64,000 bases of DNA from Deinococcaceae bacterium (GCA_046327935.1 JAXLXL010000001.1:1152386-1216385), one strand, 5' to 3'. Numbered from the stretch's first letter, positions 934-34,217 are shown. Notes: generated from the letters alone by a model not told the origin. A program made the numbers and translations.

Positions 934-976
934 CTGATCAGGGTACCCGAAAACGCCATGAGAGTGCCAATTTTGA

Positions 977-1696: not shown

Positions 1697-1725
1697 GCCC
1701 TTACTTTAAACCATTTGTGTGGCCA

Positions 1726-2370
1726 TTAACTTTTTGTATTTACCGGATTCAGCTTAATGCCCTTTTGGGGGCACAGAAACCCAAGGATACATTCGGGGCA
1801 CCGTGGGTTTTGGGACTTACACACCCTTCGACCGTGCAAAATCAGCGCGTTGTGAACAAAAATCCACTGCGACTGCGGGAAGAATGCTTCCAAGTCTGTT
1901 TCGATCTTGTCCGGGTTTGTGTGCACGCTCAAGCCCAGTCGTCTCGCAAGCCTGCCCACGTGCGTGTCGACGGCGATCGCCGGCCTTCCGAAGGCATTGG
2001 CCATGACGACATTTGCAGTTTTGCGTCCCACACCTTGTAACTCCGTCAATTGTTCAAAGTTTTCGGGGACGTGGCCATCATGGTGCTCCACCAGTCGCTG
2101 GGCCAGTGCGACAATGTACCTTGATTTTGTCCGGTGAAAGCCGATGCTTTGGATCAATTGTTCGATGTGCTCCACAGGGGCTTGAGCCATAGCGTGTGCG
2201 TCTGGGTAGTGGAAGAACAGTTTAGGTGTGGTGCTGTTGACCCTGACGTCGGTTGTCTGTGCGGACAACACAGTGGCGACCAAAAGTTGAAACGGGGTTT
2301 GGTAGGCCAATTCCGTCTGCGCATCCGGGTAAAGGGCGTGCAAAACTTCGAGCACATCGGTGGCATTCAC
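1726..2370 (-). CDS. nth: Endonuclease III (DNA glycosylase/AP lyase)
   Basis: HhH-GPD motif LQGVGRKTANVV. C-terminal 4Fe-4S cluster loop C-x6-C-x2-C-x5-C. Confidence 0.85.
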   Translation of the reverse strand: MNATDVLEVLHALYPDAQTELAYQTPFQLLVATVLSAQTTDVRVNSTTPKLFFHYPDAHAMAQAPVEHIEQLIQSIGFHRTKSRYIVALAQRLVEHHDGHVPENFEQLTELQGVGRKTANVVMANAFGRPAIAVDTHVGRLARRLGLSVHTNPDKIETDLEAFFPQSQWIFVHNALILHGRRVCKSQNPRCPECILGFLCPQKGIKLNPVNTKS

Positions 2371-3605: not shown

Positions 3606-3941
3606 GTTCCAATTCTAGTGGCCAAAGCCAAAAATTGGGGATGTCGCGAGGGTGAAAGTTGTTCGGTTCACTAGGATTGAAGCTTTAGGGTAAAGTTAAA
3701 AAACACGCTTCTGTGTTGAAGCGATCACTTCAATGCCTGGCAAACGTAATGCCCTGATTCTACCCATACCCGTTGGTAGCTGTAAGTACTGAGACTCCTT
3801 ACGCGGTCAAGCTGCACGGTATGTTGTTCTGGCCAAGATGGCGAAAAAACAAAATCTGTCGTTCTGGATGCTATTTACGAAAAAATAAGTTTCCGCGCTG
3901 CTGAGCGTGTTTTCAATATCTATCGTCATACCATTTATGGC

Positions 3942-4604
3942 TCATCCCAAACTCTGTTTAAAGTGCTCAAGAAGCCAATTGGAATCGTATGTGTGACTTT
4001 GGGTCAATTGAGATAGCGTGGAGACCATTTGGTCAAAGCGCTTGAGGAGGCGGGTGTAGCCTAGAGATCCCTGTGTCTGTCGGTAGTGGTTGTTGAGCGA
4101 GCGGTAGTACCATAGCGTTCCCCACTTCCCTCCGGTAAACCTTTCCCAAAGGCCATCACCGACCTCTTGCCAATCCTCGACAATGGATTGGGCGTTGTAC
4201 AGTTTGTCGGCCAATGAGACCAACCGTGATGCCTCGGGTTTTTGGATGAGGTGTTCCAGATAGCGTGTTTTGCGGTCCAACCAATCGAGGGCCTTCAGTC
4301 GAGCATCGTGACAGGATTGTGTTTTGTCTTCTTTTGTGGCGTCTGAGCAATCTTTGACAATATCCAGCACTTGGGGACCGAACAGTCTGGAGATTTCAAT
4401 ATGCACTTCAAGGCCAATGTCTTCGAGGGAATCGTGTAGGAGTGCGCCGATGGCCTCGGTTTCCGTGCCACCATGCTCCAGAACCAGGCTGCACACACCC
4501 ATGAGGTGCGCAATATAAGGGGCTGCACTGGGGCCTTTTCGAAATTGCCGTGCATGCAGTCTGTGCGCATAAACCAAGGCCTGGTCAAAGCGTTCTGTTA
4601 ACAT
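3942..4604 (-). CDS. HD-domain hydrolase, (p)ppGpp-hydrolase-like (RelA/SpoT N-terminal homolog)
   Basis: YAHRLHARQFRKGPSAAPYIAHLMGV...ALLHDSLED matches the HD metal-binding pattern of SpoT-type hydrolase domains. No synthetase domain is present. Confidence 0.6.
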   Translation of the reverse strand: MLTERFDQALVYAHRLHARQFRKGPSAAPYIAHLMGVCSLVLEHGGTETEAIGALLHDSLEDIGLEVHIEISRLFGPQVLDIVKDCSDATKEDKTQSCHDARLKALDWLDRKTRYLEHLIQKPEASRLVSLADKLYNAQSIVEDWQEVGDGLWERFTGGKWGTLWYYRSLNNHYRQTQGSLGYTRLLKRFDQMVSTLSQLTQSHTYDSNWLLEHFKQSLG

Positions 4605-4693
4605 GCTTTATTGTAGCGGTTTACCTCAAAAAAGTTGGAAAAACAAAAGGCATGTGCAAAAGACATGCCTTCACCGTTTCTTAAATGGGGTTT

Positions 4694-5146
4694 TTACCGG
4701 TGGGGATGCTTGGGCATATTTTGATGGTTTTTAGGATGGTGCTTGTTCATTTTGTTGTTGCGGGCATGCATTTTCAGCTGAGGGTACTTTTTGAAGAAGG
4801 CCTGGGCCCGCTCCGTCATCTTTATCTTCGAAGCCTTGAGTGTATTTTTCTCTGTCTGGACGGATTTTTCAGCTTCGAGTTGCGCCATTTGTTTAGACAT
4901 TCCCTTTTCGAGTGCGGCAACATAGGCTTTGAGTTGAGCCATTTGAATTTCTTTGGCTTTCGTTTGGAATTGTGTTCTCTCGGCTTTTAACGCTTCCCAT
5001 TCACTCTGGTCTTCGGGCTTTACGGTGTTTTTGATCGTCAATTCGTGGGCCTTTTGACGCAAGGCTTTCATTTCTTCATTTCCACCTTTTTGTGCAAAAG
5101 CCATGCTGCTCAGGACGAGGGCGCCAATCAAGAATAGGTGTTTCAT
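4694..5146 (-). CDS. Secreted coiled-coil protein with His-rich C-terminus
   Basis: The internal start MKHLFLIGALVLSSMAFA is a signal peptide preceded by a GGAGG RBS. The ORF track extends 77 codons upstream without support. C-terminal HHPKNHQNMPKHPH tail. Confidence 0.5.
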   Translation of the reverse strand: MKHLFLIGALVLSSMAFAQKGGNEEMKALRQKAHELTIKNTVKPEDQSEWEALKAERTQFQTKAKEIQMAQLKAYVAALEKGMSKQMAQLEAEKSVQTEKNTLKASKIKMTERAQAFFKKYPQLKMHARNNKMNKHHPKNHQNMPKHPHR

Positions 5147-5270
5147 CGTAACCTCCAGAAGGCCCGCTGTGTCTCGGGCTTTCAATGGATTAGAGTGTCG
5201 AATTTTGGAAAAGTTCCCGGAACCCGATTTCATAGGGGAACGTATAATAAAACCGAGCGGGGGATGCCTT

Positions 5271-7004
5271 TTGATCTGTCCTTTTTGTGGAACGTTGAAC
5301 GAATCGAGTGCTTCGGTGTGTCGGGTTTGCGGTGGGCGTTTTGGCTCAGAAAGCCAATACCTCCCACAAGGCCACAAGTTGGGACGCTATGAACTGGGCA
5401 AAGTGCTCGGCCAAGGTGGTTTCGGGGTCACCTATGCAGGTCGGGATACACTTTTGGGCCGGGGTGTCGCCATCAAGGAATTTTTTCCCCAAGGATCTGT
5501 GCGACAGGTGATGACCGTCATTCCGCCCAGAAACATCGATTTTACACACGAAAAAACCCGATTTTTGGAAGAAGCCCGCCTGCTGGCGCAGTTTGACCAT
5601 CCGGGTATTGTGCGTGTTTGGGACACCTTTGAGGCCTTCGATACCGTCTATTTGGTGATGGAGTTTTTGAAGGGCGAAACGCTCGGCAAGCGCATGGAGA
5701 AGCCGATTTCGGAGTCAGAAGTTGTTGATATTGCACGTCAGATTTTGGCAGCCTTGGATGTCGTTCACAGCTGTGGAATGCTACACCGTGATATCAAGCC
5801 GGACAATATTTTCCTGGCGCAAGAAGGTCGTGCTGTTCTGATCGATTTCGGTTCTGCGCGCACATTTGCCCAAGGTGAAGCCAAGTCGCACACACGTTTG
5901 GTCACACCCGGATACGCCCCACCCGAGCAATATGCCAGCCAAGCCAAATTCGGTCCGTACACCGATCTGTACGCTCTCGGAGCGACCCTTTACCATGCCC
6001 TTTTGGGTGAAATGCCGCCGGCGGCCACGGACCGCCTGCTCGGTGTCGCCTTAAAACCTTTGCCCGCACACGTGTCTTTTTCGCTGCGCGCCCTGCTTGA
6101 GCGGTGCCTCGCCCTTGAGGTTGCGAAGCGTCCACAGGCTGTTCAAGACGTGTTGACGCTGTTTGAAGAGGGGGCTCGATCCCCTCGGCGGAACACCCCT
6201 CAAAACACCCCCTCACCAAAACCTGAAACCACAGCCATTTCGCTAGACGAGCCGATTTCGCCTTCGGGCGACCAGCTGGTCAAGGCCATCCGATTTTCTC
6301 CGGAAGGGGGAACGCTGCGCTTAACTGCGGGAAGGTTTGTACTTCCGCAAGCCCTTGAAATCAAAAAAAGTTTGAAACTCATCGGCCTCGGCCCGGACAA
6401 AACCACCATTGTGGGTTCAGACGAAGGGTTTGTGCTGTATTCGAGTTCTGGAACACTGCATTTGGAAGGGCTCACATTGGAACACACCGGCAAAAAACCA
6501 TCCGATGTTTTGGTCGTCGGTCAACGGCTCAATGTTGAAAAGTGTGTGATTCGGGGTGGAGTTGTCGATGCCTCTGGGGATGGTGGAAATGGCATTGTTC
6601 TGCTCGGCAGTGCCGATGCAACCATCAAGCAATCGGCCTGTGAGCGCAATGGTTCGAGTGGCGTGTTCTTGTCGGATTCCTCGCGAGCATATCTGGAGGG
6701 AAATCGATTCAGTCACAATGGAAGCTGTGGGGTCGCTTACTTTGGTCGCTCGAGTGGTGTGGCGCGCAAAAACGTCTGTTCCGGAAATGACTTGCACGGC
6801 GTCGTCGTCACCGATGACGCGCAGCCCATATTGGAGGAAAATGTCCTTGAACGGAACAGGGAATGTGGCGTGGCATTTTTGGGGCATTCCCGTGGACGGG
6901 CTTTTGACAATGCCCTGAGTGGAAATGTGTTGCATCCCATTTTTGTCGCTCGGGAAGCCCGGCCCAGCCTGCAAGGAAATAGTGGTCATGTTGTCAGAAG
7001 ATAA
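5271..7004 (+). CDS. Hanks-type Ser/Thr protein kinase with N-terminal zinc ribbon and C-terminal right-handed beta-helix repeats
   Basis: Kinase motifs: G-loop GQGGFGVTY, VAIK, HRDIKPDN, DFGSAR, PPEQ. N-terminal CPFC...CRVC ribbon. C-terminal ~230 aa of Gly/Asn/Ser-rich parallel beta-helix repeats. Start reassigned to TTG at 5271 (TATAAT at 5243-5248, GGGGGA RBS), because the ORF-track start at 5103 overlaps the upstream convergent gene. Confidence 0.8.
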   Translation: MICPFCGTLNESSASVCRVCGGRFGSESQYLPQGHKLGRYELGKVLGQGGFGVTYAGRDTLLGRGVAIKEFFPQGSVRQVMTVIPPRNIDFTHEKTRFLEEARLLAQFDHPGIVRVWDTFEAFDTVYLVMEFLKGETLGKRMEKPISESEVVDIARQILAALDVVHSCGMLHRDIKPDNIFLAQEGRAVLIDFGSARTFAQGEAKSHTRLVTPGYAPPEQYASQAKFGPYTDLYALGATLYHALLGEMPPAATDRLLGVALKPLPAHVSFSLRALLERCLALEVAKRPQAVQDVLTLFEEGARSPRRNTPQNTPSPKPETTAISLDEPISPSGDQLVKAIRFSPEGGTLRLTAGRFVLPQALEIKKSLKLIGLGPDKTTIVGSDEGFVLYSSSGTLHLEGLTLEHTGKKPSDVLVVGQRLNVEKCVIRGGVVDASGDGGNGIVLLGSADATIKQSACERNGSSGVFLSDSSRAYLEGNRFSHNGSCGVAYFGRSSGVARKNVCSGNDLHGVVVTDDAQPILEENVLERNRECGVAFLGHSRGRAFDNALSGNVLHPIFVAREARPSLQGNSGHVVRR

Positions 7005-7035
7005 ATATCCGGTCAAGTGTAGGTTGGTACAGATA

Positions 7036-8280
7036 ATGGGTATGAGAAGAAAATTGGGATTTGCTCTTGGCGTGCTTTTTTTGAGCCATGGATCCGTACA
7101 GGGTGTATCGATCGAGGCAAAAACCTATCTTGACCAGGTGATATTGACGATTCAGAATAATGCCTTGGTCTCTGATCAACTCGATTGGACAAAACTGCGC
7201 AGGGAAGTTTTAAGCAAAGCGAGTAACGCCAAGAATCCCGAGGACACCTATCCAGCCATAGAATACCTTTTTGAACAGCTTAGGACCAAAGATCATCACA
7301 GCACTTTTCATACACCTCAAGACGCAAAAAAGATGCAGGCGAAAACGAGAGGCACTTTTGGTTTCCGCTGGTCCGCTTACCCGCAGGAAAATGTGGTCAC
7401 GTGGGTCATTCCTGGAAGTTCTGCAGAGAGAGCCGGGATGCGCGGAGGGGACCGAATTGAGAAGATAGGTGGACAGCCACCCAAAGCGACTTCTTTAATG
7501 GGAATCAATGAGGTAACGTTGCAATTGCGTCGCAAAGGCATTCCTTCCTCCTTTCAAGTGAAGCTGAAACGGTCTGAAATCAATATCAACGAAGCACCCA
7601 AAGCCTGGCTTTTGGGGGAACGCGTTGGCGTTCTGGAGCTACCTGGCACAACGGGTCAGGGAATGACTCCGCAAGGAAGTTATAGCGAGCTAGGCCAAGA
7701 GGCCCTCCGTATGTTGGATATGGCCAACCCTCTGTGTGGATGGGTGGTTGATCTGCGCAAAAACGATGGGGGAAACATGTGGCCCATGTTGGCTGCTGTG
7801 AGTCCTGTCCTGGGCGAAGGAAAGGTGGGATCTTTTGTAGGAGGCGGTGGACTTTCTTTTCTCAAAGACTGGAAATACAGTGAAGGGAAAGCCATCTTGG
7901 GGTTTTCCGTTCGTTCGAGTGTCAAAAAACCGTATACGTTGAAGCATCTCTTTCCTCCTGTCGCTGTGTTAACCAGTTCGCAAACAGCGAGTTCGGGAGA
8001 AGCCTTGGCTGTAGCGTTCAAAGGCCGAGATAAAACACGCTTCTTTGGAGAAGCCACCCTAGGCATCCCCACATCCAATGATGTCTATACACTTTCGGAT
8101 GGGGCTGTTTTGGTCGTCACAACGATGTTGGATGCGGATCGGACGGGTCAGACCTATTTCACTTCAATGGCTCCAGATGAATCGGTCAAAGTGGATTGGT
8201 CTCTCGTGAACCTTCCCAGCGACCCTGTGCTTCTTCAAGCCCAAAACTGGCTCAAAATTCAATCAGAATGTAAGGAATAG
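7036..8280 (+). CDS. S41 family C-terminal processing peptidase with PDZ domain
   Basis: Signal peptide MGMRRKLGFALGVLFLSHGSVQG. PDZ region GMRGGDRIEKIGGQP. S41 motifs WVVDLRKNDGG and LTSSQTASSGEALA. Confidence 0.75.
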   Translation: MGMRRKLGFALGVLFLSHGSVQGVSIEAKTYLDQVILTIQNNALVSDQLDWTKLRREVLSKASNAKNPEDTYPAIEYLFEQLRTKDHHSTFHTPQDAKKMQAKTRGTFGFRWSAYPQENVVTWVIPGSSAERAGMRGGDRIEKIGGQPPKATSLMGINEVTLQLRRKGIPSSFQVKLKRSEININEAPKAWLLGERVGVLELPGTTGQGMTPQGSYSELGQEALRMLDMANPLCGWVVDLRKNDGGNMWPMLAAVSPVLGEGKVGSFVGGGGLSFLKDWKYSEGKAILGFSVRSSVKKPYTLKHLFPPVAVLTSSQTASSGEALAVAFKGRDKTRFFGEATLGIPTSNDVYTLSDGAVLVVTTMLDADRTGQTYFTSMAPDESVKVDWSLVNLPSDPVLLQAQNWLKIQSECKE

Positions 8281-8293
8281 TCAAAGGAGTCTT

Positions 8294-9670
8294 ATGCTCA
8301 ATGCAACCTTAAAAACCCATCGGGAATTTCTCTTGGCCCATCAAGAAGGTCAAAAACTGTTTTTGGCGCTCACCTTAAAACCGAGTGCGGATGCCGCAAA
8401 GGCACGCCCGGATCTGAGCATTGCCTTTGTCGTGGACACCTCGGGCAGCATGCGGGAAGTGGTCACCCAACCGACCGAAATCACCAAGGAGAAAGTTCGC
8501 ATTGATGGGCAAAACTACAATGTGGTCAAAGGCGCAAAGAGCAAAATCGATCTGGTGGTCGAATCGCTCCGCGCCGTCATTGGTTCAGAGCTCTTGGCAA
8601 GCACCGACCGACTGGCTTTGGTCAAATTTGACGACAATGCCGAGGTTTTGGTTCCCTTTACACCGGCCACCGAGAGGGCGCGGTTGCTCGCTGCCGCTGA
8701 ACGTTTAACCCATTACTCGGGCGGAACGATGATGGGTGCGGGCATGAAACATGGCATCCGCCTGCTGGAATCGGAAACCGGAAGCCGCCGGATGGTGCTT
8801 TTGACGGACGGTGAGACCTTTGACGAAGCTGTTGTGCGCGAACAAATTGCCTTGATCGCAGCGGGTCACATTCCGGTCAGTGTGGTCGGTGTCGGAGATT
8901 TCAAGGCAGACCTGTTGCTCGAAACGGCCGACAAAACCCAGGGTCAACTCTTTGACGTCAAGCCAGATACCGAAAACCCAAAACCACCCGCCATTTGCGC
9001 GACCGACCTGCCCAAAGCCCTTTTGGGAGATCTGCAAAAAGCGGCTCTGGAGGTCGTCACCGGTGTGGGCCTGTCAATTCGATCCATCAAGGACGTCGTG
9101 CTGGACCGGATCACTCGGGTTATGCCCACCCAGACGGAGGTTGATCTCGGCGCTCAACCCCATGCGCTGGGCAACGTTGAAGTGGGTTCGGGTTCCACCT
9201 ATATTCTGGAATTTACCCTGCCTGCGCGCCCACCTGCCCGAATGCGGTTGGCGCAAATTGGCCTGACCTATGAGGTTCCTGGAGCGAACTACCGCGGTGA
9301 AATTCCACCTTTAGACGTCATCGTGGAGTTTACCCAAGACGAAGCCCGGGCCGCTTCTGTACACGCCGATGTCATGCAGTGGGTTCAACAGCGAAACATT
9401 GAAATGCTGGTGATGCAGGCGACCAAAGAAGCCGCTCGCAATCCGGAACAGGCAGCCAAAACCTTGGAACAAGCGCGCAACATGACCGTTCGCTTGGGCA
9501 ACAGCGCCATGACGCAAGCCCTTGACCAAGCGATCGGGGAATTGTCGGGATCCAAAACTATTTCGCTTGGCACAACAAAAACGCTGCGATTGGGCGCGAA
9601 AACCCAAACATTGCAAGGGGATTCAGATATTCCCAGCGACGAGGAAATTCGCCGAATTACGGGTGCTTGA
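8294..9670 (+). CDS. von Willebrand factor A domain protein
   Basis: MIDAS motif DLSIAFVVDTSGSM, plus downstream LLTDGE. No signal peptide. Confidence 0.7.
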   Translation: MLNATLKTHREFLLAHQEGQKLFLALTLKPSADAAKARPDLSIAFVVDTSGSMREVVTQPTEITKEKVRIDGQNYNVVKGAKSKIDLVVESLRAVIGSELLASTDRLALVKFDDNAEVLVPFTPATERARLLAAAERLTHYSGGTMMGAGMKHGIRLLESETGSRRMVLLTDGETFDEAVVREQIALIAAGHIPVSVVGVGDFKADLLLETADKTQGQLFDVKPDTENPKPPAICATDLPKALLGDLQKAALEVVTGVGLSIRSIKDVVLDRITRVMPTQTEVDLGAQPHALGNVEVGSGSTYILEFTLPARPPARMRLAQIGLTYEVPGANYRGEIPPLDVIVEFTQDEARAASVHADVMQWVQQRNIEMLVMQATKEAARNPEQAAKTLEQARNMTVRLGNSAMTQALDQAIGELSGSKTISLGTTKTLRLGAKTQTLQGDSDIPSDEEIRRITGA

Positions 9671-9760
9671 GGGCAGCAGTGCTCGGTCGCGATTTGCCAT
9701 CGTGCAGGTTATGATGGAAGAACGGTAACAGGCTCGTATAGCTAGCCAGGGGAGAGGTTC

Positions 9761-10366
9761 ATGAAAGTTGTGATTGCCAGCTCAAACGAAGGCAAAATTG
9801 CAGAGATTCAGGCCGCACTAGCGGGTTTGGGTTGGGAGTTTCTCAGTCTGAGAGATATTCGGGTCGGCCTTCCTCCAGAAGATGCTGCAACCTATGAGGA
9901 GAACGCTGCCCTAAAAGCGTGCTCTGTCGCTTTGCAAACGCGAATACCTGCCCTAGCAGACGACTCCGGTCTGGAAGTCTTGGCGCTCAAAGGGGCTCCA
10001 GGGGTTCACAGTGCACGCTACGGAGCCAAAAAAGACGACCTCGAGAGAAATATTTATCTGTTGGAACAGCTTCGGGGTGTTTCCGACCGACGTGCTAAGT
10101 TTGTCGCTTGCATGGTTTTGGCTTACCCGGATGGCCATTTGGAGGTGTATAAAGGCGAAATTGACGGTCAAATTGTCCTCGGTCCCCGCGGTGAAGGTGG
10201 GTTTGGATACGATCCCCTCTTTATGCCCACAGGACTCAATCACACCTTTGGAGAAATTTCCGCTCAAGATAAACTCTCCATTTCGCATCGGGGTCGGGCC
10301 CTGGCTGCACTCAAAGAGGCACATAAAGACGGTCCACCCAAACGGCAGACCATTCCCTTGACTTGA
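9761..10366 (+). CDS. rdgB: dITP/XTP pyrophosphatase (Ham1/RdgB family)
   Basis: MKVVIASSNEGKIAEI N-terminus. FGYDPLF and SHRG motifs of non-canonical purine NTP pyrophosphatases. Confidence 0.85.
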   Translation: MKVVIASSNEGKIAEIQAALAGLGWEFLSLRDIRVGLPPEDAATYEENAALKACSVALQTRIPALADDSGLEVLALKGAPGVHSARYGAKKDDLERNIYLLEQLRGVSDRRAKFVACMVLAYPDGHLEVYKGEIDGQIVLGPRGEGGFGYDPLFMPTGLNHTFGEISAQDKLSISHRGRALAALKEAHKDGPPKRQTIPLT

Positions 10367-10626
10367 ATCATCCAGTTCGCTTTGCCCCTTCTTGGATGCA
10401 GCGGTTGTGCATGCATGCGGGGTCAAAGGTGGGTCTGTATGCATTCTGCATCCAATGTGTCATTTTTGCTTTTGCGAATGCATGGAAGAACTGACCGTTA
10501 TCAAATATCAAAAAGCAGTCTTGGCCAAAGTAGCACCAACCCGTTTCAGAGCAATGGGGTCTTTGTGCCTGAAAACTGCGGACAATGGATGCTCAAGGCG
10601 GTGTTACATGTTACCTTGGGTGATGT

Positions 10627-11937
10627 ATGTTTGAAACTCTTGGCGAAAAGCTGCAAGGTATTTTGGATCGACTGCGCTCGGAAAGCAAACTCACCGAATC
10701 ACATGTCAAGACCGCCATGCGAGAAATCCGTATGGCCTTTCTGGAAGCAGATGTCAATTTTGATGTTGCAAAAGAATTTGTGGCCAAGGTCTCAGACAAG
10801 GTTCTGGGACAAGAGATTATTGCGGGTGTTGGGGCTGGGCACATGGTGGTCAAGCTCGTTCACGACGAATTGATCGAAACACTTGGTGGAAAAACAATCC
10901 AACCCGAGCTTCATGCCCAGCGGAATGTTTGGTTTATGGTCGGGCTTCAGGGTGCGGGAAAGACAACCAGTACAGGAAAACTGGCCAATCTCTACAAGTC
11001 CAAGGGACGCCGCGTGCTGTTGGTCGCAGCCGACACACAGAGGCCCGCGGCCCGAGATCAGTTGGAGGTTTTGGGAAAACAGGTGGGCGTGCCCGTCCTC
11101 AAGGTCGAAGACGGCGAGACACCTGCGACCACCCGGGCCCGTTTGCAAGCGTATTTGCAGAACGATTACCGAGATTTGGTGATCGTCGACACAGCAGGAC
11201 GTCTGCAGATAGATGTTCAACTGATGGATCAATTGGCCGACCTCAAAGGGGAACTCGAGCCGACGGAGACGCTGCTCGTGGTCGATGCGATGACTGGACA
11301 AGAGGCCTTGAGCGTGGCAAGGACCTTTGAAGGGCGCATCGGTTTGACCGGTTTGGTCATGACAAAAATGGATGGCGATGCACGCGGTGGGGCGTCGTTG
11401 AGTGCGCGTTACATCACGCAGAAGCCGATTTACTTTGCCGGGGTTTCCGAAAAACTTTCAGGCCTCGAGCCGTTTCATCCCGATCGCATTGCCGGACGTA
11501 TCTTGGGAATGGGGGATATTCTCAGTTTGGTTGAACGTGCAGAACAGGCGGAACTCGCTTCTGCCATGCCCAAGAAACTGAACGAATTCAATTTGGATGA
11601 CCTGTTGGTTCAGCTTAGGAATTTGCGCAAATTGGGACCGATGACCGATATCATGCGTATGATTCCTGGCGTTTCAAAGGCCATACCAGCTGACTTCCAG
11701 ATCGATGAAAAACAATTGCAGCGCATTGATGCGATTTTGAGCTCCATGACGCGCCAAGAGCGTGAGAATCCCAGTGTGATCAATGGATCTCGGAGGAAAC
11801 GCATTGCCCGAGGTTCTGGTGTTGCGGTTCAAGAGGTCAATCGGCTTTTGAAAATGTACGATCAGATGAAAGATATGATGAAAATGTTTGGATCCAAGAA
11901 CATGCGCAAAATGATGGGCGCATTTGGACGAAAATAA
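10627..11937 (+). CDS. ffh: Signal recognition particle protein Ffh (copy 1)
   Basis: N domain, GTPase P-loop [30 protein letters not shown], and Met-rich M domain. Confidence 0.9.
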
Positions 11938-11965
11938 ACCCACAACCCACAGGAGATCCGCTGTG

Positions 11966-12214
11966 ATGAAAATGTATACGACCACCTGGTGCACGGATTG
12001 CATGGCCGTCAAACGTATTTTGATCAAAAAAGGCATTTTATTTGAAGAAATTGACATTGAAAAGGATGAGACAGCGGCGGATCACGTGATGCGTATCAAT
12101 GGTGGGAAACGCAGTGTTCCGACCATTGTGTGTGGAGATGAAGTTGTCGGTTTATCGCCTGTTTCCAGGGAACGTTTGGAAGGTTTTTTATCGAGGTGTG
12201 GGTTCACACCGTAA
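11966..12214 (+). CDS. Glutaredoxin-like / NrdH-mycoredoxin-like thioredoxin-fold protein (copy 1)
   Basis: MKMYTTTWCTDCMAVKR has a CxxC motif. SVPTIV cis-Pro region. AGGAGA RBS 9 nt upstream of ATG 11966. The ORF-track start at 11924 lies inside the ffh 3' end. Confidence 0.65.
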   Translation: MKMYTTTWCTDCMAVKRILIKKGILFEEIDIEKDETAADHVMRINGGKRSVPTIVCGDEVVGLSPVSRERLEGFLSRCGFTP

Positions 12215-12220
12215 CACAAC

Positions 12221-12259
12221 AAAAGCCAATCGGCAGACAGGATTGGCTTTTGGGTTTAT
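12221..12259 (+). terminator. Rho-independent terminator downstream of the glutaredoxin-like gene
   Basis: Perfect 11-bp inverted repeat AAAAGCCAATC / GATTGGCTTTT around a 9-nt loop, followed by a T-rich tract. Confidence 0.6.
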
Positions 12260-13045
12260 CCAATGCCGTGTGCCTTCTTCGATGCCGCTGCTGATGGGTT
12301 TTGGTGTTGGGTCGCTCTGTTCCGGATTCTGTGATGGACCGAGTGCTATTCCCTATAGCTCAACAAGGACGATGAATGACAACCTCCCAGAAGTGATTGT
12401 TGTTCTGGATCTGTTTAAGTTTGAGGAAGGAAGTGTCTTTTGGCTGAACCGAGGGTATTTACCTTGAGGCCCTGTGTATATACAAACCCTTATGGATTTC
12501 AGAAATTCCCCGTGGTGGAGTGGATAATTACAGCGAGTTTCTTTAATATCGGGAATGTCTTGAGAGGTTAAAACACATCCAGGTCACGCTTTATCCATGT
12601 TTCAGTGTTTTAAAAATGATGAAAACTGCTGTAGACTTCTTGCATATACATTCATCATGCCAAAATGAAATCCACACTCATACAAAGTGATGATCTTGAT
12701 TGGTTATGCTCTATGGGACAGCGTTTTTTGCGAGTCCATCCGAGTGTTTGAACGCGTTTGTATGCTACAGGAACGGAACCAGAAGTATGCGTCTGAGATC
12801 AGCGTTGGGCATGTTGAGTAAGGGGAAAGTTAGGGTGGGTTGGGCGAGATATTCTGGAAACTGATCATCGGTGATACAGCCTTTGGGAAGGCCGGGAACC
12901 CCGCCGGATTCCCGGGTTTGATTTTGGCGATGTAGCTTCCAGTAGCATCTTGGACAAAACGGCATCTAAAATGGAGTTCCAGTTTCCGAAAACCGCCTTT
13001 TCGCTTATATTCGTGGCATCAAAGCGGGTATGGACGTCTTACCCG

Positions 13046-13705
13046 TTATTCCAGTCGGCCGTCGCGCAGTGACAGGACATTTTGTGTCTGTCTTGCCACG
13101 TCGAGGTCATGGGTGATCAAAATCACAATGCGCTTGCTTTGGGACGACGATAAGAGCGACTCGAGAATCACATGTCCTGTTTTTGTGTCCAGGTTTCCCG
13201 TCGGTTCGTCTGCCAAAACAATGCTGGGTTCGGTCACAAGGGCGCGGCAAATGGCCACCCGCTGCTGTTCTCCTCCGGAGAGTTGGTTGGGATAGTGGTG
13301 CAACCGGTGGGATAGGCCGACCTGTGTCAGAAGGGCTTGGGCCCTGCGTGCGCGTTCTTTGGGGGGCACACCCATGAGGCTCAAGGGAAATTCGACATTT
13401 TCCTGCGCTGACAAGATGCCCATCAGGTTGTAATTCTGAAAAATAAAACCAAAGTGTTTCAGTCGATACAGGGCGCGCGCCGATTCTGTGAGTGCGGTGA
13501 TGTCGGTTCCATTGTGGATGACGGTTCCCTCGGAGGGCTGATCAAATCCCGCCAGAAGGTTGAGCAGGGTGGATTTTCCGGAGCCCGAAGGTCCGACAAT
13601 GGCGGTTGAGCGTCCCGGTTCGAACACATGGGAAAAGTCGCTCAGTGCAGTGACGGTTGATTCGCCACTGGGGTATATTTTGGTGACGTGACTCGCGATG
13701 AGCAT
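13046..13705 (-). CDS. ABC transporter ATP-binding protein (LolD/MacB/FtsE-like)
   Basis: Walker [10 protein letters not shown], signature LSGGEQQRV, Walker [12 protein letters not shown]. Confidence 0.85.
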
Positions 13706-14895
13706 CAGCTTCTCCCCAATGCCTCGGTGATGGCAATTCTTCCAGCACTTCTGGAGGGGAACAGACCCGCAAGAACCCCAAGCAACAGAGAAACACCGAG
13801 GGCGATCAGCATCAGCCGTGGGGTCAAGGCGGCAACACTGATGCTGGCCAGATTCTGTGTGTAAATGTTGATTCCCACAATGCCAAGATAGCCAACCACC
13901 ACGCCGCCCAGACCGCCGATGACCGAGAGAATCAGGCTTTCGAGTAAAACCAACTTGCGGATAAACCCAGGGTTTGCACCGATCGCGCGCATGGTGCCAA
14001 ATTCGCGGGTTCGTTCGTAAACGCCCATCATAACGGTGTTGGTTACGGCCAGCCCGCCCACAATCAGGGCAATGAGGGAAATACCAAAGCGGATGGCGTC
14101 CGAAATGCTCACCGCTCGATCCAAAATTTTGAGGAAGTCAGATTGGGTTTGGGCTTCCACGTCAAAGTCTTTTTTCAGGCTTGCGGCCACCGTTTTGGCC
14201 TGGCTGGGATCGTTCAATTTGAGTGCAATGTAAGACACTTTTCCGCGGATGTCCTGCGCTTTTTGCATCGTCAGAAGTGGAACGAGAATGAAGGCATCGG
14301 CCAGTCCCCCTGTTTCTTTGAGAATGCCGACGACCTTGAAAAAATTTTTTCGGTTGTATCGGACGTCACTTCCCAGTTTGAAACCCCCATTTTGGGCCGC
14401 TTTGTGACCCACCACGGCCACTTTTTGCCCTTCGTCTTGCGCGCTCAGCATGCGTCCTGTGGCAATCTCTGCATTGGGCAGGATATCTTGGGTGCCTTGG
14501 CTGCTGGGATAGGTGTAAAAAAAGTAGTTTTGTTTGACGTCAAATCCGCCACTTCGAACAGATAAAATCACGGGTGTTACACTTTTGATACCGTAAAGGA
14601 CGCGTTTTTCTGAGATCTGTGCCGCCAGTGTTTCGGGAACATTGATGGGTGGAGGTCCACCCTGGGTGATGCCATCCACTGACACTTGAATGTCCGGACC
14701 GATCGCACCCAACTCATTGCGAAAGACCTTGCGTATACCTTCTCCCAAAGAGAGAAAAACCACCATACTGGCCACGGCCACAACAATGCCTACCGACGTC
14801 AGGGCCGTTCGTGTCGAACGCCGCATCAATCCTCGGAGCGCGAGGCGGAACAGGTCTACAGGTTGCATGAGACGGAACAGGTCTACAGGTTGCAT
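13705..14895 (-). CDS. ABC transporter permease, FtsX/MacB/LolCE family
   Basis: N-terminal TM helix, large periplasmic domain, then C-terminal 3-TM FtsX-like domain. Directly upstream of and overlapping the ATPase gene. Confidence 0.8.
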
Positions 14896-14899
14896 GAGA
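14846..14899. repeat. Perfect 27-bp tandem duplication spanning the permease start codon
   Basis: CGGAACAGGTCTACAGGTTGCATGAGA occurs twice, producing [18 protein letters not shown] at the protein N-terminus. Confidence 0.7.
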
Positions 14900-14909
14900 C
14901 CATCTTAGG

Positions 14910-15686
14910 TCATTTGGGTTCTTCGATGGCAACGCGCAAACAACCGATGCCTTCGATTTCGACCTCCACTTTGTCTCGAGCGGCCAAAGGACCGACGCCC
15001 GAGGGTGTTCCTGTGAGGATCACATCTCCGCGTTCTAGGGTCATAAATTCACTGATATAGGAGACCAAGGTGGGTATATCAAAGATCATTTGGTCGGTCC
15101 AAGCGTGCTGCTTGCGAATTCCGTTGACGCGCGTTTGGATTTCCAGGCGTTCAAGATCGAGATCGGTTTCCAGCCACGGCCCAAGTGGGCAAAACTGGTC
15201 GCTGCCTTTGGCTCGGGTCCACTGTAAATCGCTGCGTTGTCGGTCTCTGGCGGTCAAATCCAGGGCACAGGTGTAGCCCAAAATGTGATCGAGCGCGTCA
15301 CGGGTCCGGATGTGTTTACCCGGCGTTCCAATAACCAAGGCCAGTTCCCCTTCAAAATGCAGGTCTTGTGTCCACGTTGGGTACAAGATGGTGTCTTCAT
15401 GCGCAGCCAGTGTGTTTGGGCCTTTGAGGAACACCCCCGGTTCTTTGGGAAGTTCGCCGGTCGCGTGCCCCATCTCCTTGATGTGATCCAGGTAATTTCG
15501 TCCCACACAAATAATTTTCGTGGGTTCTGCGGGAGGCAGCCTTACAATTTCCGAAAGTGGAATGGCGGTGTGCTCGGTATCCCGTTTTCCATCTGGGCCT
15601 TTTGTTGGAAAAACCCGATGCGGATTTGTTTCATCCACCTGTCCCCAGAGGATTTGATCTTGCCATTTAAACCGTAGAATTTTCAT
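14910..15686 (-). CDS. Fumarylacetoacetate hydrolase (FAH) family protein
   Basis: FAH-fold motifs: IICVGRNY, FLKGPNT, GELALVIG and GTPSGVG. Confidence 0.8.
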   Translation of the reverse strand: MKILRFKWQDQILWGQVDETNPHRVFPTKGPDGKRDTEHTAIPLSEIVRLPPAEPTKIICVGRNYLDHIKEMGHATGELPKEPGVFLKGPNTLAAHEDTILYPTWTQDLHFEGELALVIGTPGKHIRTRDALDHILGYTCALDLTARDRQRSDLQWTRAKGSDQFCPLGPWLETDLDLERLEIQTRVNGIRKQHAWTDQMIFDIPTLVSYISEFMTLERGDVILTGTPSGVGPLAARDKVEVEIEGIGCLRVAIEEPK

Positions 15687-15772
15687 GCTGTATGACAGAT
15701 TAGCAGAGTTCTGTCGGTCAAGCTCTTGACCAAACGGCCAAAGTCTTATAGGCTAAGTTCCGCTGTTGTCGG

Positions 15773-15862
15773 GGAGAGGTGTCCGAGCGGTTTAAGGAGC
15801 ACGCCTGGAAAGCGTGTATAGGGTAACACCTATCGCGGGTTCGAATCCCGCCTTCTCCGCCA
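15773..15862 (+). tRNA. tRNA-Ser (anticodon GGA), type II with long variable arm, CCA encoded
   Basis: GGAGAGGTGTCCGAGCGGTTTAAGGAGCACGCCTGGAAAGCGTG...GGTTCGAATCCCGCCTTCTCCGCCA. Acceptor stem pairs (one GU). Anticodon loop CTGGAAA. Confidence 0.85.
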
Positions 15863-15881
15863 ATAGATGTTGTGAAAGCAG

Positions 15882-15925
15882 GCGTCCCAAGGGTTCAAAA
15901 AGGCTCTTGGGACGTTTTCTTTTTC
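15882..15925 (+). terminator. Rho-independent terminator after tRNA-Ser
   Basis: 9-bp stem CGTCCCAAG / CTTGGGACG followed by TTTTCTTTTTCT. Confidence 0.65.
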
Positions 15926-15965
15926 TCGAGAATCGGTTGAAATTCACGCGTGATACACTCAAAAC

Positions 15966-16508
15966 ATGCGCGCGTGCGACAGAGCCCTTGAAGACCTGTA
16001 TGTGGCCTTTCATGTGGAAAACCCTGTTGTCTCAGTGATGCTGACCGTGGGTGACCCAACCGACTTTCGTTATTTCTTGCCCAGAATTCTGGAAATACAG
16101 CGCGATTCTGGTGTGTTCGGCTGGCCGAGCATAGAGGTCATTTTTGGACATTTGCGCAGGGCGGATTGGCAGTCATGGCCCAGCCGTGAGGTTGCTGCCC
16201 TAATTTGTTTTTCACACGCTGTGTTTGAAGGGCTTCTCAATTCCGAGGAACACAATGGCGATGCAATCGACAGTTGGATGTGTGCTTTCGGTCGGGCCGG
16301 AATGGACGTCCAGCCCTTTTTGAAACGCCTGTTCGAGCCGCAATACCGAACAAAGTTCATCCAATACTATGAAAAAAACAGCTCAAAATTGATTCGTGGC
16401 AGGTTATCCAATGCTTTTTGGGACAACCGTGTGCCAATGCAAGAGATCGTTTCTTGGTTTCAATCTGAAGAGGTTCAAAACGCCATCTTTGAGGCCTATG
16501 GCTTATAA
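15966..16508 (+). CDS. Hypothetical protein
   Basis: 180-aa ORF with genome-typical GC. No recognisable motif. Confidence 0.4.
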   Translation: MRACDRALEDLYVAFHVENPVVSVMLTVGDPTDFRYFLPRILEIQRDSGVFGWPSIEVIFGHLRRADWQSWPSREVAALICFSHAVFEGLLNSEEHNGDAIDSWMCAFGRAGMDVQPFLKRLFEPQYRTKFIQYYEKNSSKLIRGRLSNAFWDNRVPMQEIVSWFQSEEVQNAIFEAYGL

Positions 16509-17083
16509 GTCGCGTGTTCTGTTGATCACACTGTTTCGAAATTCCTGAAGAATCCGAATTCCTTCCTCTCGGGCCACCGCTTCTTCGACCTGGACGCCCC
16601 GTTCATGCAGTTGCGCGCGCCAATCGCCCGATGGAAATGGGGTGTTGGGTAAATCCAACTGGGCCAGGAGGTCACTGTGGCTGATGGCACAAACAAAACG
16701 ACTCGGAACCTCTGAGTAAATGTTGCCCAAACAGAACAGGGAGGAGCCAAGGAAAACATTTCCCAGTCAGAGCGTTGGCGGAGTTCTTTGGATCCCCAAA
16801 GGTTGCTCGCAAGCATGAGCGCATTGGTCATCTCATGGCCTCCGATGCCGGGAGCGTCGACCCCAACAGAAATGAGCAGTCCATTTGCGTCAAAAACAGC
16901 GGCAGCCAAAGGCGCACCCGAACCCGACTGGATATTGAGGCGGGCACACTCAAAAACCAGAGCCATTTTGGATGGATCATCCGGGTAGGGCTGAGACCGC
17001 AACCGCGCCTCGTATTCAAGCAACCACAATGGTACGGTGATTTCACGCGCATGGTTCCAGTTGGCATACGTTGTATCTGACAT
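16503..17083 (-). pseudogene. Decayed CDA-fold nucleotide deaminase (guanine deaminase/TadA-like)
   Basis: The 185-aa ORF aligns to CDA-fold deaminases: ...GIGGHEMTNAL (H-x-E zinc site) and APPCSVW, where the second zinc-ligand Cys is Trp. The conserved C-terminus (CAISHSD...LQEFRNSV) continues in another frame (ORF 16503-16730), so there is at least one frameshift. Confidence 0.45.
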
Positions 17084-17235
17084 CTCAGCATTTTATCTCA
17101 GCCGTGGGCTTTGACCGTGGGCGGATCCAATGGCGCCCTTCTTTTCAACCCGTTTCAGAGCAATGGGGTCTTTGTGCCTGAAAACTGCGGACAATGGATG
17201 CTCAAGGCGATGTTACATGTTACCTTGGGTGATGT

Positions 17236-18546
17236 ATGTTTGAAACTCTTGGCGAAAAGCTGCAAGGTATTTTGGATCGACTGCGCTCGGAAAGCAAACT
17301 CACCGAATCACATGTCAAGACCGCCATGCGAGAAATCCGTATGGCCCTTCTGGAAGCAGATGTCAATTTTGATGTTGCAAAAGAATTTGTGGCCAAGGTC
17401 TCAGACAAGGTTCTGGGACAAGAGATTATTGCGGGTGTTGGGGCTGGGCACATGGTGGTCAAACTCGTTCACGACGAATTGATCGAAACACTTGGTGGAA
17501 AAACAATCCAACCCGAGCTTCATGCCCAGCGGAATGTCTGGTTTATGGTTGGGCTTCAGGGTGCGGGAAAGACAACCAGCACAGGAAAACTGGCCAATCT
17601 CTACAAGTCCAAGGGACGCCGCGTGCTGTTGGTCGCAGCCGACACACAGAGGCCTGCGGCCCGTGACCAATTGGAGGTTTTGGGAAAACAGGTGGGCGTG
17701 CCCGTCCTCAAGGTCGAAGACGGCGAGACACCTGCGACCACCCGGGCCCGTTTGCAAGCGTATTTGCAGAACGATTACCGAGATTTGGTGATCGTTGACA
17801 CAGCAGGACGTCTGCAGATAGATGTTCAACTGATGGATCAATTGGCCGACCTCAAAGGGGAACTCGAGCCGACGGAGACGCTGCTCGTGGTCGATGCGAT
17901 GACTGGACAAGAGGCCTTGAGCGTGGCAAGGACCTTTGAAGGGCGCATCGGTTTGACCGGTTTGGTCATGACAAAAATGGATGGCGATGCACGCGGTGGG
18001 GCGTCGTTGAGTGCGCGTTACATCACGCAGAAGCCGATTTACTTTGCCGGGGTTTCCGAAAAACTTTCAGGCCTCGAGCCGTTTCATCCCGATCGCATTG
18101 CCGGACGTATCTTGGGAATGGGGGATATTCTCAGTTTGGTTGAACGTGCAGAACAGGCGGAACTCGCTTCTGCCATGCCCAAGAAACTGAACGAATTCAA
18201 TTTGGATGACCTGTTGGTTCAGCTTAGGAATTTGCGCAAATTGGGACCGATGACCGATATCATGCGTATGATTCCTGGCGTTTCAAAGGCCATACCAGCT
18301 GACTTCCAGATCGATGAAAAACAATTGCAGCGCATTGATGCGATTTTGAGCTCCATGACGCGCCAAGAGCGTGAGAATCCCAGTGTGATCAATGGATCTC
18401 GGAGGAAACGCATTGCCCGAGGTTCTGGTGTTGCGGTTCAAGAGGTCAATCGGCTTTTGAAAATGTACGATCAGATGAAAGATATGATGAAAATGTTTGG
18501 ATCCAAGAACATGCGCAAAATGATGGGCGCATTTGGACGAAAATAA
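17236..18546 (+). CDS. ffh: Signal recognition particle protein Ffh (copy 2)
   Basis: Full-length and in frame. Differs from copy 1 by one residue (F to L) plus about ten synonymous substitutions. Confidence 0.85.
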
Positions 18547-18574
18547 ACCCACAACCCACAGGAGATCCGCTGTG

Positions 18575-18823
18575 ATGAAAATGTATACGACCACCTGGTG
18601 CACGGATTGCATGGCCGTCAAACGTATTTTGATCAAAAAAGGCATTTTATTTGAAGAAATTGACATTGAAAAGGATGAGACAGCTGCGGATCATGTGATG
18701 CGTATCAATGGTGGGAAACGCAGTGTTCCGACCATTGTGTGTGGAGATGAAGTTGTCGGTTTATCGCCTGTTTCCAGGGAACGTTTGGAAGGTTTTTTAT
18801 CGAGGTGTGGGTTCACACCGTAA
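18575..18823 (+). CDS. Glutaredoxin-like protein (copy 2)
   Basis: Protein identical to copy 1. Same RBS. Confidence 0.6.
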   Translation: MKMYTTTWCTDCMAVKRILIKKGILFEEIDIEKDETAADHVMRINGGKRSVPTIVCGDEVVGLSPVSRERLEGFLSRCGFTP

Positions 18824-19696
18824 CACAACAAAAGCCAATCGGCAGACAGGATCAGCTTTTGGGTTTATCCAATGCCGTGTGCCTTCTTTGATGCCACTGC
18901 TGATGGGTTTTGGTGTTGGGTCACTCTGTTCCGTGTTTTGTGATGGACCGAGTGCGATGCATACCCACAGAAAAGCTGGCAATACTGCTGTGATTTGCAT
19001 TGCCAAAATGTACCCAGAGCGTAATTTTAGAGCAATCTATATTATTTTTAGATATCTTAGAGAGTGTATGAACCTGTCTGAAATCTAAGATGCTTAGACT
19101 GGATATTGCGTCTCTTTCGAGGCCCTTTTGGGTCTTTTTAACTAGAGAAATACCAGTGAGGGAAATCATGGGGCATACTGTTTCATTTAGAACCATTATC
19201 AAGTATATGGAAGATGGCATTGATCATTTCTTCTAGGGATACGAGAATCAATGGTCAGTCAAGCAGGTGTAAAGATGGCGTACAAGTTATACTACGGCAT
19301 ATTTTATAATTATTGGGAATTTTTGAGAGCTTAATAAAAGTAGTTTCAAAAAGTTTCTTTTTCTATGAATATCGCTTTCTAAATTTCAAGGAAATTAGGG
19401 AATTTCCCGTAAGGTATTGTTGTTTCTAAGTTGTATGTGTTTACACAAAATGAAGAAAAGAAGTACCATGCATTCCTGCGGCCTCTTTTATGAAAATACC
19501 ATTCGTTATATTTTTAAACTCTTCTTTTTCTGGGATCTAGGCTGTGATTTACTGTCATATACAAGGCTGATCACACTGCATTTAAAAATAAAATATCCTA
19601 AAAGTAGATGAACTTGCCGTAAAACGCAGTCTGTTATATGTCCTTATTATATTTCCTCCCTGGATAAATTTATACAGACTCTAATTGATGTGAATT

Positions 19697-20248
19697 TCAT
19701 TGCTCTATTTGCTCAAATCGTTCACTTCTATTGAGTTTTTCAAGTGCTTCTTTGCAAGAATCTGCAACGAAATTAAGTTTTCTATCGACACTTGCGAATA
19801 CCCTACCCATATCATCAATCAAAAGCACAACCATTCCACACTCGTCGACACCAACTGGACACAGACGGCGTTGAATCATACACTCATCTTCTTCTAATCT
19901 AAATTCAACATAGTGATCTGCCGCGTGTAGAACGTCGAATTTGTATCTCTTCTGGGTATTGACGTTTTTACCTGGAAAATCAACAGTTAAATAATTGTAA
20001 GAACATGCAAATTTTATCGCAAATTCATTAAAATAAACACCGAGCGAAGATAATTTATGGGCAATTTCTGAAACATCAACACATCGATTGGCAGTCCATC
20101 CTGATTTATAAAGTGTCTCATCCAATGATGGCCAGACTTCTCTCCTATTCGCAATTTTTTGTCCCTTTAGTAAAAATTGAATTTCAGCCAGCTCTTGCTC
20201 AATTTCCTGTTGAAGCTGTGCTATCAAACGATTCCCTTCTGTATCCAT
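19697..20248 (-). CDS. Hypothetical protein encoded in a low-GC islet
   Basis: 183-aa ORF with much lower GC than its surroundings. No motif recognised. Confidence 0.4.
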   Translation of the reverse strand: MDTEGNRLIAQLQQEIEQELAEIQFLLKGQKIANRREVWPSLDETLYKSGWTANRCVDVSEIAHKLSSLGVYFNEFAIKFACSYNYLTVDFPGKNVNTQKRYKFDVLHAADHYVEFRLEEDECMIQRRLCPVGVDECGMVVLLIDDMGRVFASVDRKLNFVADSCKEALEKLNRSERFEQIEQ

Positions 20249-20811
20249 GGTGATCAGCTCCTTATGTATTCACGGGTTGTTCTGTTTTTAGTCTCTATAC
20301 AAAAAATTAGAGGTAGAAAAAGCTTTATTCATAGAATAGACTTCTTTCGAAACCGAATATTGAAGAACCCAAAGCGATGAGAGGCATGTTCTCTACGTAA
20401 ATTGAACAGTCGTTGAGCCATTGTTGAACCGGTGGATGGGTTGACTTTCACACGCACAGCAATTTCCTTTGTTTTTTGGATCTGCAGTCAACGAAAACTC
20501 AGATCTGAGGGTGTCTTCAGCACAAAAATACGTGATGGATGGAGAGATTTCGTCATTTTTTCGATATTCTAGGGATCAAAAATAGCATGTGGATCTACAT
20601 TATCGGTGCTCAAAATTCTTCATTCTTCGTCGTTTAAAAATTTTCTTTATGGTTCTGTTTGAGGTTCGAAAGAAGTCTATTGAAATCAGGGGGATGAACC
20701 ATTACGTCGTTTCCCCTCAGAGATAGTCTAAAGAACTTATAACCGTCTTGCAATCCTTCTTCAACGTCTTGCTCACAAGATATAGCACATACTTGGTCAG
20801 AGCGGCACCTC

Positions 20812-33210: not shown

Positions 33211-33631
33211 TCGGTATACCCCAGGGAAACCAAAGTCCCAGGGCACCAGTGAGGCATACAGAACCTCAACCGCTGTTACTGGCCTCGAAGGTTCTTTGAA
33301 ATTCTAGGGGAAACATGTGATGTGTGTATGTGAGAAATGGCCTAGAGAGTGTCCTGCAAATATTTGTTGGGTTTATTTTGAATTGGAGATGGTGTTGAGG
33401 GAGGTGACAGCTGAGGATACCTGCGGTTGGTTCAAACATTCCTTTTGGAAAAGATCATGGACCACTGGATTGGGCGTGGCTGGTTTTCTAAAGGGTCTAA
33501 TTTGAGATGAAAAAACGTTGCTGTATGATGTGCAGAACGAAATTGAGATGAATTTGAAAGATGCGATTTCCGCCTTCAGTCTTTGAGGTTTCATCCATTG
33601 AAATGGCATTTTACAGCGGGTTTCATAATTA

Positions 33632-34165: not shown

Positions 34166-34217
34166 AATCTCTTCAATAAATGCCTCTCTTTTTATTATAT
34201 TTGATGGTGTTTCTTTT

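Follow-up and report, generated by a model that had tools for sequence, protein, structure and literature searches.

Does a bacterial chromosome that appears to carry two complete ffh genes really do so, and how did the second copy arise? This question is raised by a 64,000-nucleotide stretch of a Deinococcaceae bacterium (GCA_046327935.1, JAXLXL010000001.1:1152386-1216385; hereafter the window, in whose own numbering all coordinates are given), in which a 1.81 kb block comprising ffh, a gene for a glutaredoxin-like protein (grx) and a terminator is found at two positions in direct orientation. This arrangement was recognized in an original prediction made from the DNA sequence alone, which took the 4.8 kb between the copies for an insert. 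The analysis described here leads to a different reading: with a probability that we put at about 0.75, the ffh-grx cassette has been genuinely and recently duplicated, at an ectopic (non-tandem) position and in this lineage only.

The two copies and their recovery in independent assemblies

A repeat search combined with a position-by-position comparison revealed a self-match at an offset of 6609 bp, pairing 10537-12347 with 17146-18956. The two segments differ by 22 mismatches over 1811 nt, with no indels (98.8% identity), and the predicted block was thus confirmed. Self-BLAST placed the pair at 10537-12349 and 17146-18958, while alignment with related sequences moved the left edge one base further out, to 10536/17145, where the second copy carries a derived C>T change. 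The first copy, designated A (10536..12347, + strand), includes 90 bp 5' of ffh and ∼130 bp 3' of grx; the second, designated A', occupies 17145..18956 (+ strand). Both edges are sharp, and directly beyond the repeat the identity falls to ∼25%, i.e. chance level. Between the copies lie 4.8 kb of single-copy DNA, consisting of a spacer (s') and a gene block (B) that were each found once by self-BLAST. A tandem duplication as the present layout was therefore ruled out, since the copies are not arranged head-to-tail and neither s' nor B is doubled.

Each copy contains an intact, full-length ffh gene, as had been predicted. The genes of copy A (10627..11937, + strand; MFN8509997.1) and copy A' (17236..18546, + strand; MFN8510005.1) both encode proteins of 436 aa, which differ at a single residue (F38 in A, L38 in A'). 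Ffh of copy A reached 556.5 bits with the NCBIfam equivalog TIGR00959 (cut-off 473.2), and the Pfam domains are arranged in the N-G-M order: PF02881 (SRP54_N) at residues 5-82, PF00448 (SRP54) at 100-294 and PF02978 (SRP_SPB) at 320-418. Besides the nonsynonymous F38L site, the two genes differ at nine synonymous sites, all ten being located in codons 38-187. A 56-aa eukaryotic DUF1350 fragment that was grouped with the Ffh proteins had been mis-clustered and is not an Ffh. Neither the signal recognition particle (SRP) RNA nor ftsY was found within the 64-kb window; an Rfam scan of the window detected only two tRNAs, and no RNA element in s' or in the lineage-specific segment n1 described below.

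The glutaredoxin-like gene located downstream of ffh (11966..12214 in A and 18575..18823 in A', both + strand) encodes an 82-aa PF00462 protein in which the CxxC motif reads CTDC; the two copies specify the same protein and differ by two synonymous substitutions. The closest NCBIfam families, YruB-family and mycoredoxin, were both scored under their cut-offs. The cassette ends with an intrinsic-terminator hairpin, which in copy A is intact and followed by a U tract (12220..12252, + strand; -18.3 kcal/mol, z = -4.6). In copy A' (18829..18861, + strand) it is weakened by two derived stem mismatches (-10.5 kcal/mol, z = -2.0), in agreement with the two stem mutations originally reported. These changes are TG>CA at the positions equivalent to 12244/5, where the relatives match copy A, so the A' state is the derived one. 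Two open reading frames (ORFs) running across the right repeat edge (12099-12467 and 18708-19088) were taken as spurious, given that they have no family match and overlap grx out of frame.

With both ffh and both grx genes intact, the two copies are probably both expressed, and the cell would have two working Ffh genes. Copy A of ffh is located 260 bp 3' of rdgB, on the same strand and behind the same 90-bp leader as A'; it may also be transcribed by read-through from rdgB. Copy A' keeps its native divergent upstream region.

The window originates from a metagenome-assembled genome (MAG) of an uncultured bacterium, in which a single contig of 1,463,913 bp encodes consecutive proteins from rdgB (MFN8509996) to SUKH-3 (MFN8510007). 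The locus can be described as a series of blocks (W-n1-X-A-s'-B-A'-Y), and every junction of the repeat was recovered in independent assemblies, which makes an assembly ghost as unlikely as originally suggested. The X/A junction is present in contig L086 (SRR26348423), which is 100% identical to the window and ends 30 nt into the repeat (10566). The A/s' junction was found in L002 (SRR26348423), the s'-B junction in L087-L089 (SRR26348420, SRR26348422 and SRR26348423), the B/A' junction in L003 (SRR26348422), and the B/A'/Y junctions in L001, a contig from a separate study (ENA, ERZ650265). The more distant W/n1/X junction was likewise recovered in two data sets (L186 and the ENA contig L187). 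L187 is 99.7% identical to the window over W/n1/X; its first 291 nt, past window position 4933 near a 125-aa ORF, could not be aligned, which points to strain-level variation.

In this lineage, the Logan contigs are interrupted at the repeat edge: two of them (L002, L004) begin at 10537, and L086 ends at 10566. A true two-copy repeat interrupts contigs in just this way when the graph is built with k = 31, and the contigs of relatives cross the same edge unbroken. It is improbable that the layout is an artefact, i.e. that the genome holds a single repeat (R) between X and Y and, apart from this, an R-s'-B unit of 6.6 kb that is circular or amplified in tandem, or that the contig is a chimera of two strains. 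Such an error would be conceivable in a MAG; the assembly graph (X>R, B>R, R>s', R>Y) is compatible with either resolution, and L001-L004 mix A and A' alleles. However, the 1.46 Mb contig crosses an identical 888-bp core twice, which is beyond short-read assemblers, and reads spanning the repeat therefore probably went into the MAG assembly. Moreover, the alleles at the right end are tied to their own flanks (A-type with s' in L002, A'-type with Y in L001), and 22 fixed differences without indels are unlike consensus error. Even an excision product of A × A' recombination would still derive from the same duplication.

Gene order in close relatives

The informative relatives were metagenomic contigs of 93-97% DNA identity from seven other samples (labelled, like those above, with L-numbers). 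Two of them, L170 and L175 (93-95%), run unbroken from a deaminase-like gene through ffh-grx into Y (window 16446-18993). That they cross both repeat edges without a break indicates a single-copy ffh in these relatives. A third contig, L174, has the same left flank and ends at 18920 within the repeat, thus covering the left edge only. L170 and L085, which come from one sample, overlap by 30 nt in tRNA-Ser, and L179 spans the interval from a 180-aa ORF to an ABC ATPase gene; together they identify block B as the native left neighbour of the ancestral ffh. The order and orientation of block B are the same in L085, L170, L178-L181 and L185.

In L085, L178-L181 and L185 (six samples), the 3' flank of the ABC gene (12995) is joined to the 3' end of an HD_4 gene (3935) through a spacer of ∼365-390 bp; L182 reaches 12995 and does not extend to 3935. 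The relatives thus carry block X (3935..10524) beside B, but in the orientation opposite to that in the window. In L085 and L177 the homology 3' of rdgB ends at 10524, ∼11 nt short of copy A, and the contigs continue into unrelated genes absent from the window, with no ffh after rdgB. The genes of block W (window 173-3675) were found in L176 with other neighbours. Three junctions are therefore private to the window lineage: 3675/n1 (259 bp)/3935, 10524/∼11 nt/A, and A/s' (647 bp)/12995.

Judged by this gene order, A' is shown to be the ancestral locus, with the flanks that are native in the relatives, and A to be the derived copy, located at a rearrangement breakpoint. The same comparison places copy A at one junction of a rearrangement with several breakpoints, by which the 6.6 kb block X was flipped. 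This block now borders on W and n1 at one end and on A and s' at the other, all of them new neighbours. A genome scan of 31 species representatives of Deinococcales revealed no second ffh locus.

Comparative synteny also bears directly on the proposed insert. Block B is shown to be native chromosome: it is found at the same place and in the same orientation beside ffh-grx-Y in all recovered relatives of 93-97% identity, which have a single ffh (at least six samples), so that the 4.8 kb segment is not an insert. The synteny check proposed earlier thus has two outcomes: B is core in the relatives, against the prediction, and the A-B-A' layout as such is not shared by them.

It had been supposed that a circular element composed of B and one repeat integrated across ffh in the manner of Campbell, or that a tRNA-Ser-associated island was captured. 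The direct A-B-A' layout is indeed the product expected of Campbell integration, a tRNA gene is located within B, and A' is followed by a low-GC islet with a relic of an insertion sequence (IS). Beyond the native position of B, however, its GC content (0.52-0.55 at 13-17 kb) resembles the rest of the window, its genes include no integrase or recombinase identifiable by Pfam, and the 3' 26-mer of tRNA-Ser is single in the window even when up to 3 mismatches are allowed, leaving no attachment (att) repeat. Similarity to plasmids and phages was limited to generic ABC and tRNA matches. B is not among the parts that are new in this lineage, which are A, s', n1 and the orientation taken by X. We consider this origin highly improbable, and neither form of it was upheld.

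Probable exchange between the copies and the origin of the duplication

The 22 differences between A and A' comprise ten in ffh, two synonymous ones in grx, one in the leader and nine in the final 105 bp. As had been noted, most of the coding differences (11 of 12) are synonymous, and the divergence at synonymous sites (dS), proposed earlier as a check, amounts to 0.030, compared with a nonsynonymous divergence (dN) of 0.001. At most one nonsynonymous change in 12 would be obtained under neutrality with P ∼1e-6.

The differences are unevenly distributed. In the 5' part of ffh, 10 of 561 positions differ between A and A', compared with 10-13 of 561 relative to the relatives (L174, L175). The following core (11188..12075, + strand) appears homogenized: none of its 888 positions differ between the copies, although 27-28 of them (∼3%) differ from the relatives. 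The next 139 bp contain two differences (13-15 against the relatives), and the 3' non-coding 133 bp contain nine (6.8%; 25-36 against the relatives). The edges thus diverge by 1.8-6.8%. A gap of 888 bp is unexpected by permutation, with P = 0.0016 if mutations are confined to sites that vary among relatives and P = 5e-6 under a uniform model. Polarization against the relatives identifies F38 and four synonymous sites, within 324 bp, as derived in A, and the terminator mutations, most of the changes at the 3' end and two synonymous sites as derived in A'; three sites are homoplasic overall.

This pattern is a recombination mosaic. It would result from gene conversion over the core, from strain alleles imported into one copy, or from both. 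Because of this mosaic, dS does not reveal how old the duplication is. For the same reason, the synonymous excess reflects purifying selection in the source lineages of the variants, and not necessarily on both paralogues in this genome. The suggestion that both ffh copies look selected is thus supported as regards the synonymous bias, while selection on both paralogues is less well supported than stated, as mosaic alleles may inherit that bias.

An allele of foreign origin might also account for the 5' part of ffh. Deinococcus relatives are naturally transformable, and copy A could have come from a very closely related sister strain, whose ffh-grx allele was taken up and inserted ectopically. 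Over the first 561 bp of ffh, the ten sites separating A from A' are similar in number to those separating each of them from the 95% relatives (10-13), and the five A-derived sites are clustered in 324 bp, four of them recurring in L001, from another sample. Elsewhere, however, A is nearer to A' than to any relative, in the core, the 139-bp region and the 3' non-coding part alike. Patchy import into an existing paralogue would give the same pattern, and L001 may be a collapsed consensus of both copies. Overall, there is little likelihood that copy A arrived in this way.

Under the duplication reading, the resident cassette, ∼4.8 kb away in the present layout, would have been the source of a copy inserted at the breakpoint on the rdgB side of X. 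A template switch in the course of replication or repair is one possible route, and it is favoured by the location of the breakpoint within ∼11 nt of the copy and by the untraced filler at all three junctions. Later sequence exchange would have followed, in which gene conversion erased the differences over the 888-bp core, while the edges kept or imported their divergence.

A second route would be a 6.6 kb tandem duplication followed by internal deletion. In its explicit form, the inversion of X was succeeded by a tandem duplication of s'-B-A' and then by the loss of the first s'-B, leaving A behind. In bacteria, dispersed direct repeats originate most often by tandem duplication and subsequent partial loss; here the distance between the copies, which share one orientation, equals exactly one unit (6609 bp), and the window lineage has a small, 27-bp tandem duplication in ftsX. 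This course of events, however, requires an X/s' intermediate, which was present in no data set, and the left end of the deletion must have met the inversion breakpoint within ∼11 nt. In addition, no traces of another s' or B were revealed by self-BLAST. We regard it as possible, though unlikely.

Returning to duplication by copying into the breakpoint, the position of the tRNA gene suggests how the second copy may be maintained. Recombination between A and A' could loop out B, including tRNA-Ser(GGA), the sole such gene in the window. Selection against this loop-out may keep the duplication in place.

Several points weigh against this reading or restrict it. The 888-bp core is unbridgeable by short reads, and proof that X-A-s' and B-A'-Y are on one molecule needs long reads; the short-read contigs L001-L004 are mosaics of A and A' alleles, with no phasing across the core. 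As to expression, no match to the promoter consensus was found in the duplicated 90-bp leader, and over the whole region the matches were no more numerous than in shuffled sequences. Searches with word sizes of 7-9 gave no match for n1, s' or the relatives' Z and U flanks in near-relative contigs or within the 64-kb window. In tblastn and tblastx searches of genome and metagenome contigs with the window genes, relatives of 65-85% Ffh identity shared no neighbouring gene, and since no outgroup has conserved synteny, the polarity depends on the 93-97% relatives only. Finally, that the inversion of X and the copying took place as one event is something we infer rather than demonstrate.

A more far-reaching version of the proposal is that one event with multiple template switches made the X inversion, n1, s', the filler and the ffh-grx copy, and that the second Ffh is kept by the trapped tRNA-Ser(GGA). 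It is a tentative and rather unlikely proposal. If true, the event would be the bacterial counterpart of chromoanasynthesis and could plausibly be a mistake made in the fragment-reassembly repair known for Deinococcus relatives. The locus would then be a natural, datable footprint of error-prone reassembly, with a universal single-copy gene locked in two copies.

Surrounding segments, comparable systems and significance

The gene content listed originally for the interval between the copies was borne out by gene calls and Pfam. Block B (12995..17144) comprises the native neighbours of the ancestral ffh locus: genes for an ABC ATPase (13046-13705, - strand), an FtsX/MacB permease (13705-14895, - strand) and an FAH protein (14910-15686, - strand), tRNA-Ser(GGA), the 180-aa ORF and a frameshifted gene. 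The tRNA gene (15773..15862, + strand), located between the direct repeats, was identified by ARAGORN and Rfam, and a 16-bp hairpin is present 3' of it (15880-15917). At the 5' end of the permease gene, a 27-bp perfect-register tandem duplication (14842-14895) repeats MQPVDLFRL twice, and the protein has 396 aa in the window vs. 387 aa in relatives.

The frameshifted pseudogene (16526..17083, - strand), divergent from ffh of A', is a remnant of a gene for a 193-aa protein that has suffered a 4-bp deletion. The deletion was defined against the intact orthologues in L170 and L174; L003, from an independent assembly, aligns with the window without gaps and hence shares it. The "decayed deaminase" of the original prediction is thus confirmed as regards decay. 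Its identity as a deaminase comes from a weak Pfam match of the intact orthologue only (dCMP_cyt_deam_1, E = 0.098, under the cut-off). In the ERZ650265 strain (L001, ∼131-175), a further 24-bp deletion removes the start codon of this gene, pointing to progressive decay.

The spot beside the tRNA gene is variable. In the relative from SRR13208899, a 3.6 kb cluster absent from the window is located 3' of tRNA-Ser (L170, 498-4085; between window 16174 and 16446). It contains PARG-like, NADAR, 2OG-Fe(II) oxygenase and NUDIX/NrtR genes; the window has the full 180-aa ORF at this place.

Of the segments specific to the lineage, n1 (3676..3934, 259 bp) is located at the W-X junction and has no match in relatives. 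The ∼11-nt filler (10525..10535) extends from the end of the relatives' homology to the start of A. The spacer s' (12348..12994, 647 bp, ∼45% GC), between A and B, contains no convincing ORF. Block X, whose inversion relative to B is confined to this lineage, comprises an HD_4 gene, the 125-aa ORF, a Ser/Thr kinase gene, an S41 peptidase gene, a VWA gene and rdgB. The S41 peptidase is encoded by a 453-aa ORF with PDZ and Peptidase_S41 domains (7005-8284), placed between the kinase and VWA genes. It is missing in L085, in which the kinase gene is directly followed by the VWA gene; this represents a second lineage-specific indel in block X.

Copy A' is directly followed by a low-GC islet, as described earlier (Y, 18957..20700; 35% GC in 19001-20000). 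Y contains a SUKH-3 immunity-type gene (Pfam; 19697-20248, - strand) and, upstream of it, at ∼19293-19626, a degenerate relic resembling a miniature inverted-repeat transposable element (MITE), with 73% identity to the right end of an IS of the same family as the elements described below. Another lower-GC stretch of the window, at 38132-40099, carries a direct repeat with an offset of ∼1000 bp (38683-39104 vs. 39678-40099, 98.3%; 38132-38254 vs. 39133-39255, 93.5%).

These elements belong to the IS630 family. A low-GC element of ∼1035 bp is present in the window in three copies of 99.8% identity (33609-34643, 59540-60574 and 63007-64000, the last inverted), with an HTH_Tnp_IS630 ORF, a DDE_3 ORF, the terminal inverted repeat (TIR) TACAGCGGGTTTCAT and TA flanks. 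Judging from these copies, the element is evidently active in this genome and the source of several low-GC dips. A 105-bp MITE with both IS630-like TIRs and TA flanks is located in s' (12529..12633, + strand), ∼180 bp past the right end of A. Logan contigs break at 12557 and 12604, ∼30 nt into each of its ends, and because of these breaks the MITE is probably multi-copy in the genome. A solo IS630-like TIR was also found in the ABC-HD_4 spacer of the relatives.

We rejected an IS-mediated origin as the demonstrated cause of the duplication, as there is no IS or TIR relic at any repeat edge or breakpoint. In relatives, a sequence at the 12995 breakpoint that looked like a left TIR proved on inspection to be mismatched at 8 of 15 positions. 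An IS-flanked composite transposon was dismissed as well: no TIR is present at 10536 or 12347, and the sole nearby TIRs belong to the 105-bp MITE.

The best comparison for the two ffh copies is with the duplicated tuf genes of enterobacteria, which undergo gene conversion between paralogues. In both cases, a chromosome carries two near-identical intact copies of an essential GTPase gene with a role in translation or targeting, and the homogenized centre with diverged edges is the signature of RecA-dependent conversion. Unlike tuf, the ffh duplication is young and restricted to one lineage, the gene being single-copy in 93-97% relatives. It also includes a second gene and a terminator, and its copies lie 4.8 kb apart in direct orientation, with the new one at an inversion breakpoint.

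Templated insertions at breakpoints are also known from events of the fork stalling and template switching/microhomology-mediated break-induced replication (FoSTeS/MMBIR) type and from synthesis-dependent strand annealing in Deinococcus. The locus resembles them in having a nearby 1.8 kb segment placed at a breakpoint, an adjoining inverted block and fillers of ∼11 nt, 259 bp and 647 bp; it differs in that neither microhomology nor a template source of the fillers was found here.

A second ffh gene has also been described in Mycoplasma hyosynoviae NPL7, compared with one in related strains, on the basis of draft genomes; the passage reporting it contains no analysis of junctions, age or origin (PMC4398514).

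The events traced at this locus belong to ordinary genome evolution, and none of the phenomena is new in kind. Their significance lies partly in how ffh is used. As a marker, ffh counts as universal and single-copy, and the family TIGR00959 is included in marker sets for MAG completeness and contamination and for phylogenomics. If the genome really has two copies, a duplicated marker can be biology rather than contamination, which calls for caution in MAG quality control. It should be noted that short-read contigs turn into allele mosaics at such a locus, as L001-L004 did, and this could mislead strain-level and phylogenetic analyses. For the lineage itself, the locus provides a small, clean example of ectopic duplication at a rearrangement junction, of patchy conversion between young paralogues and, possibly, of a duplication stabilized by a tRNA gene.

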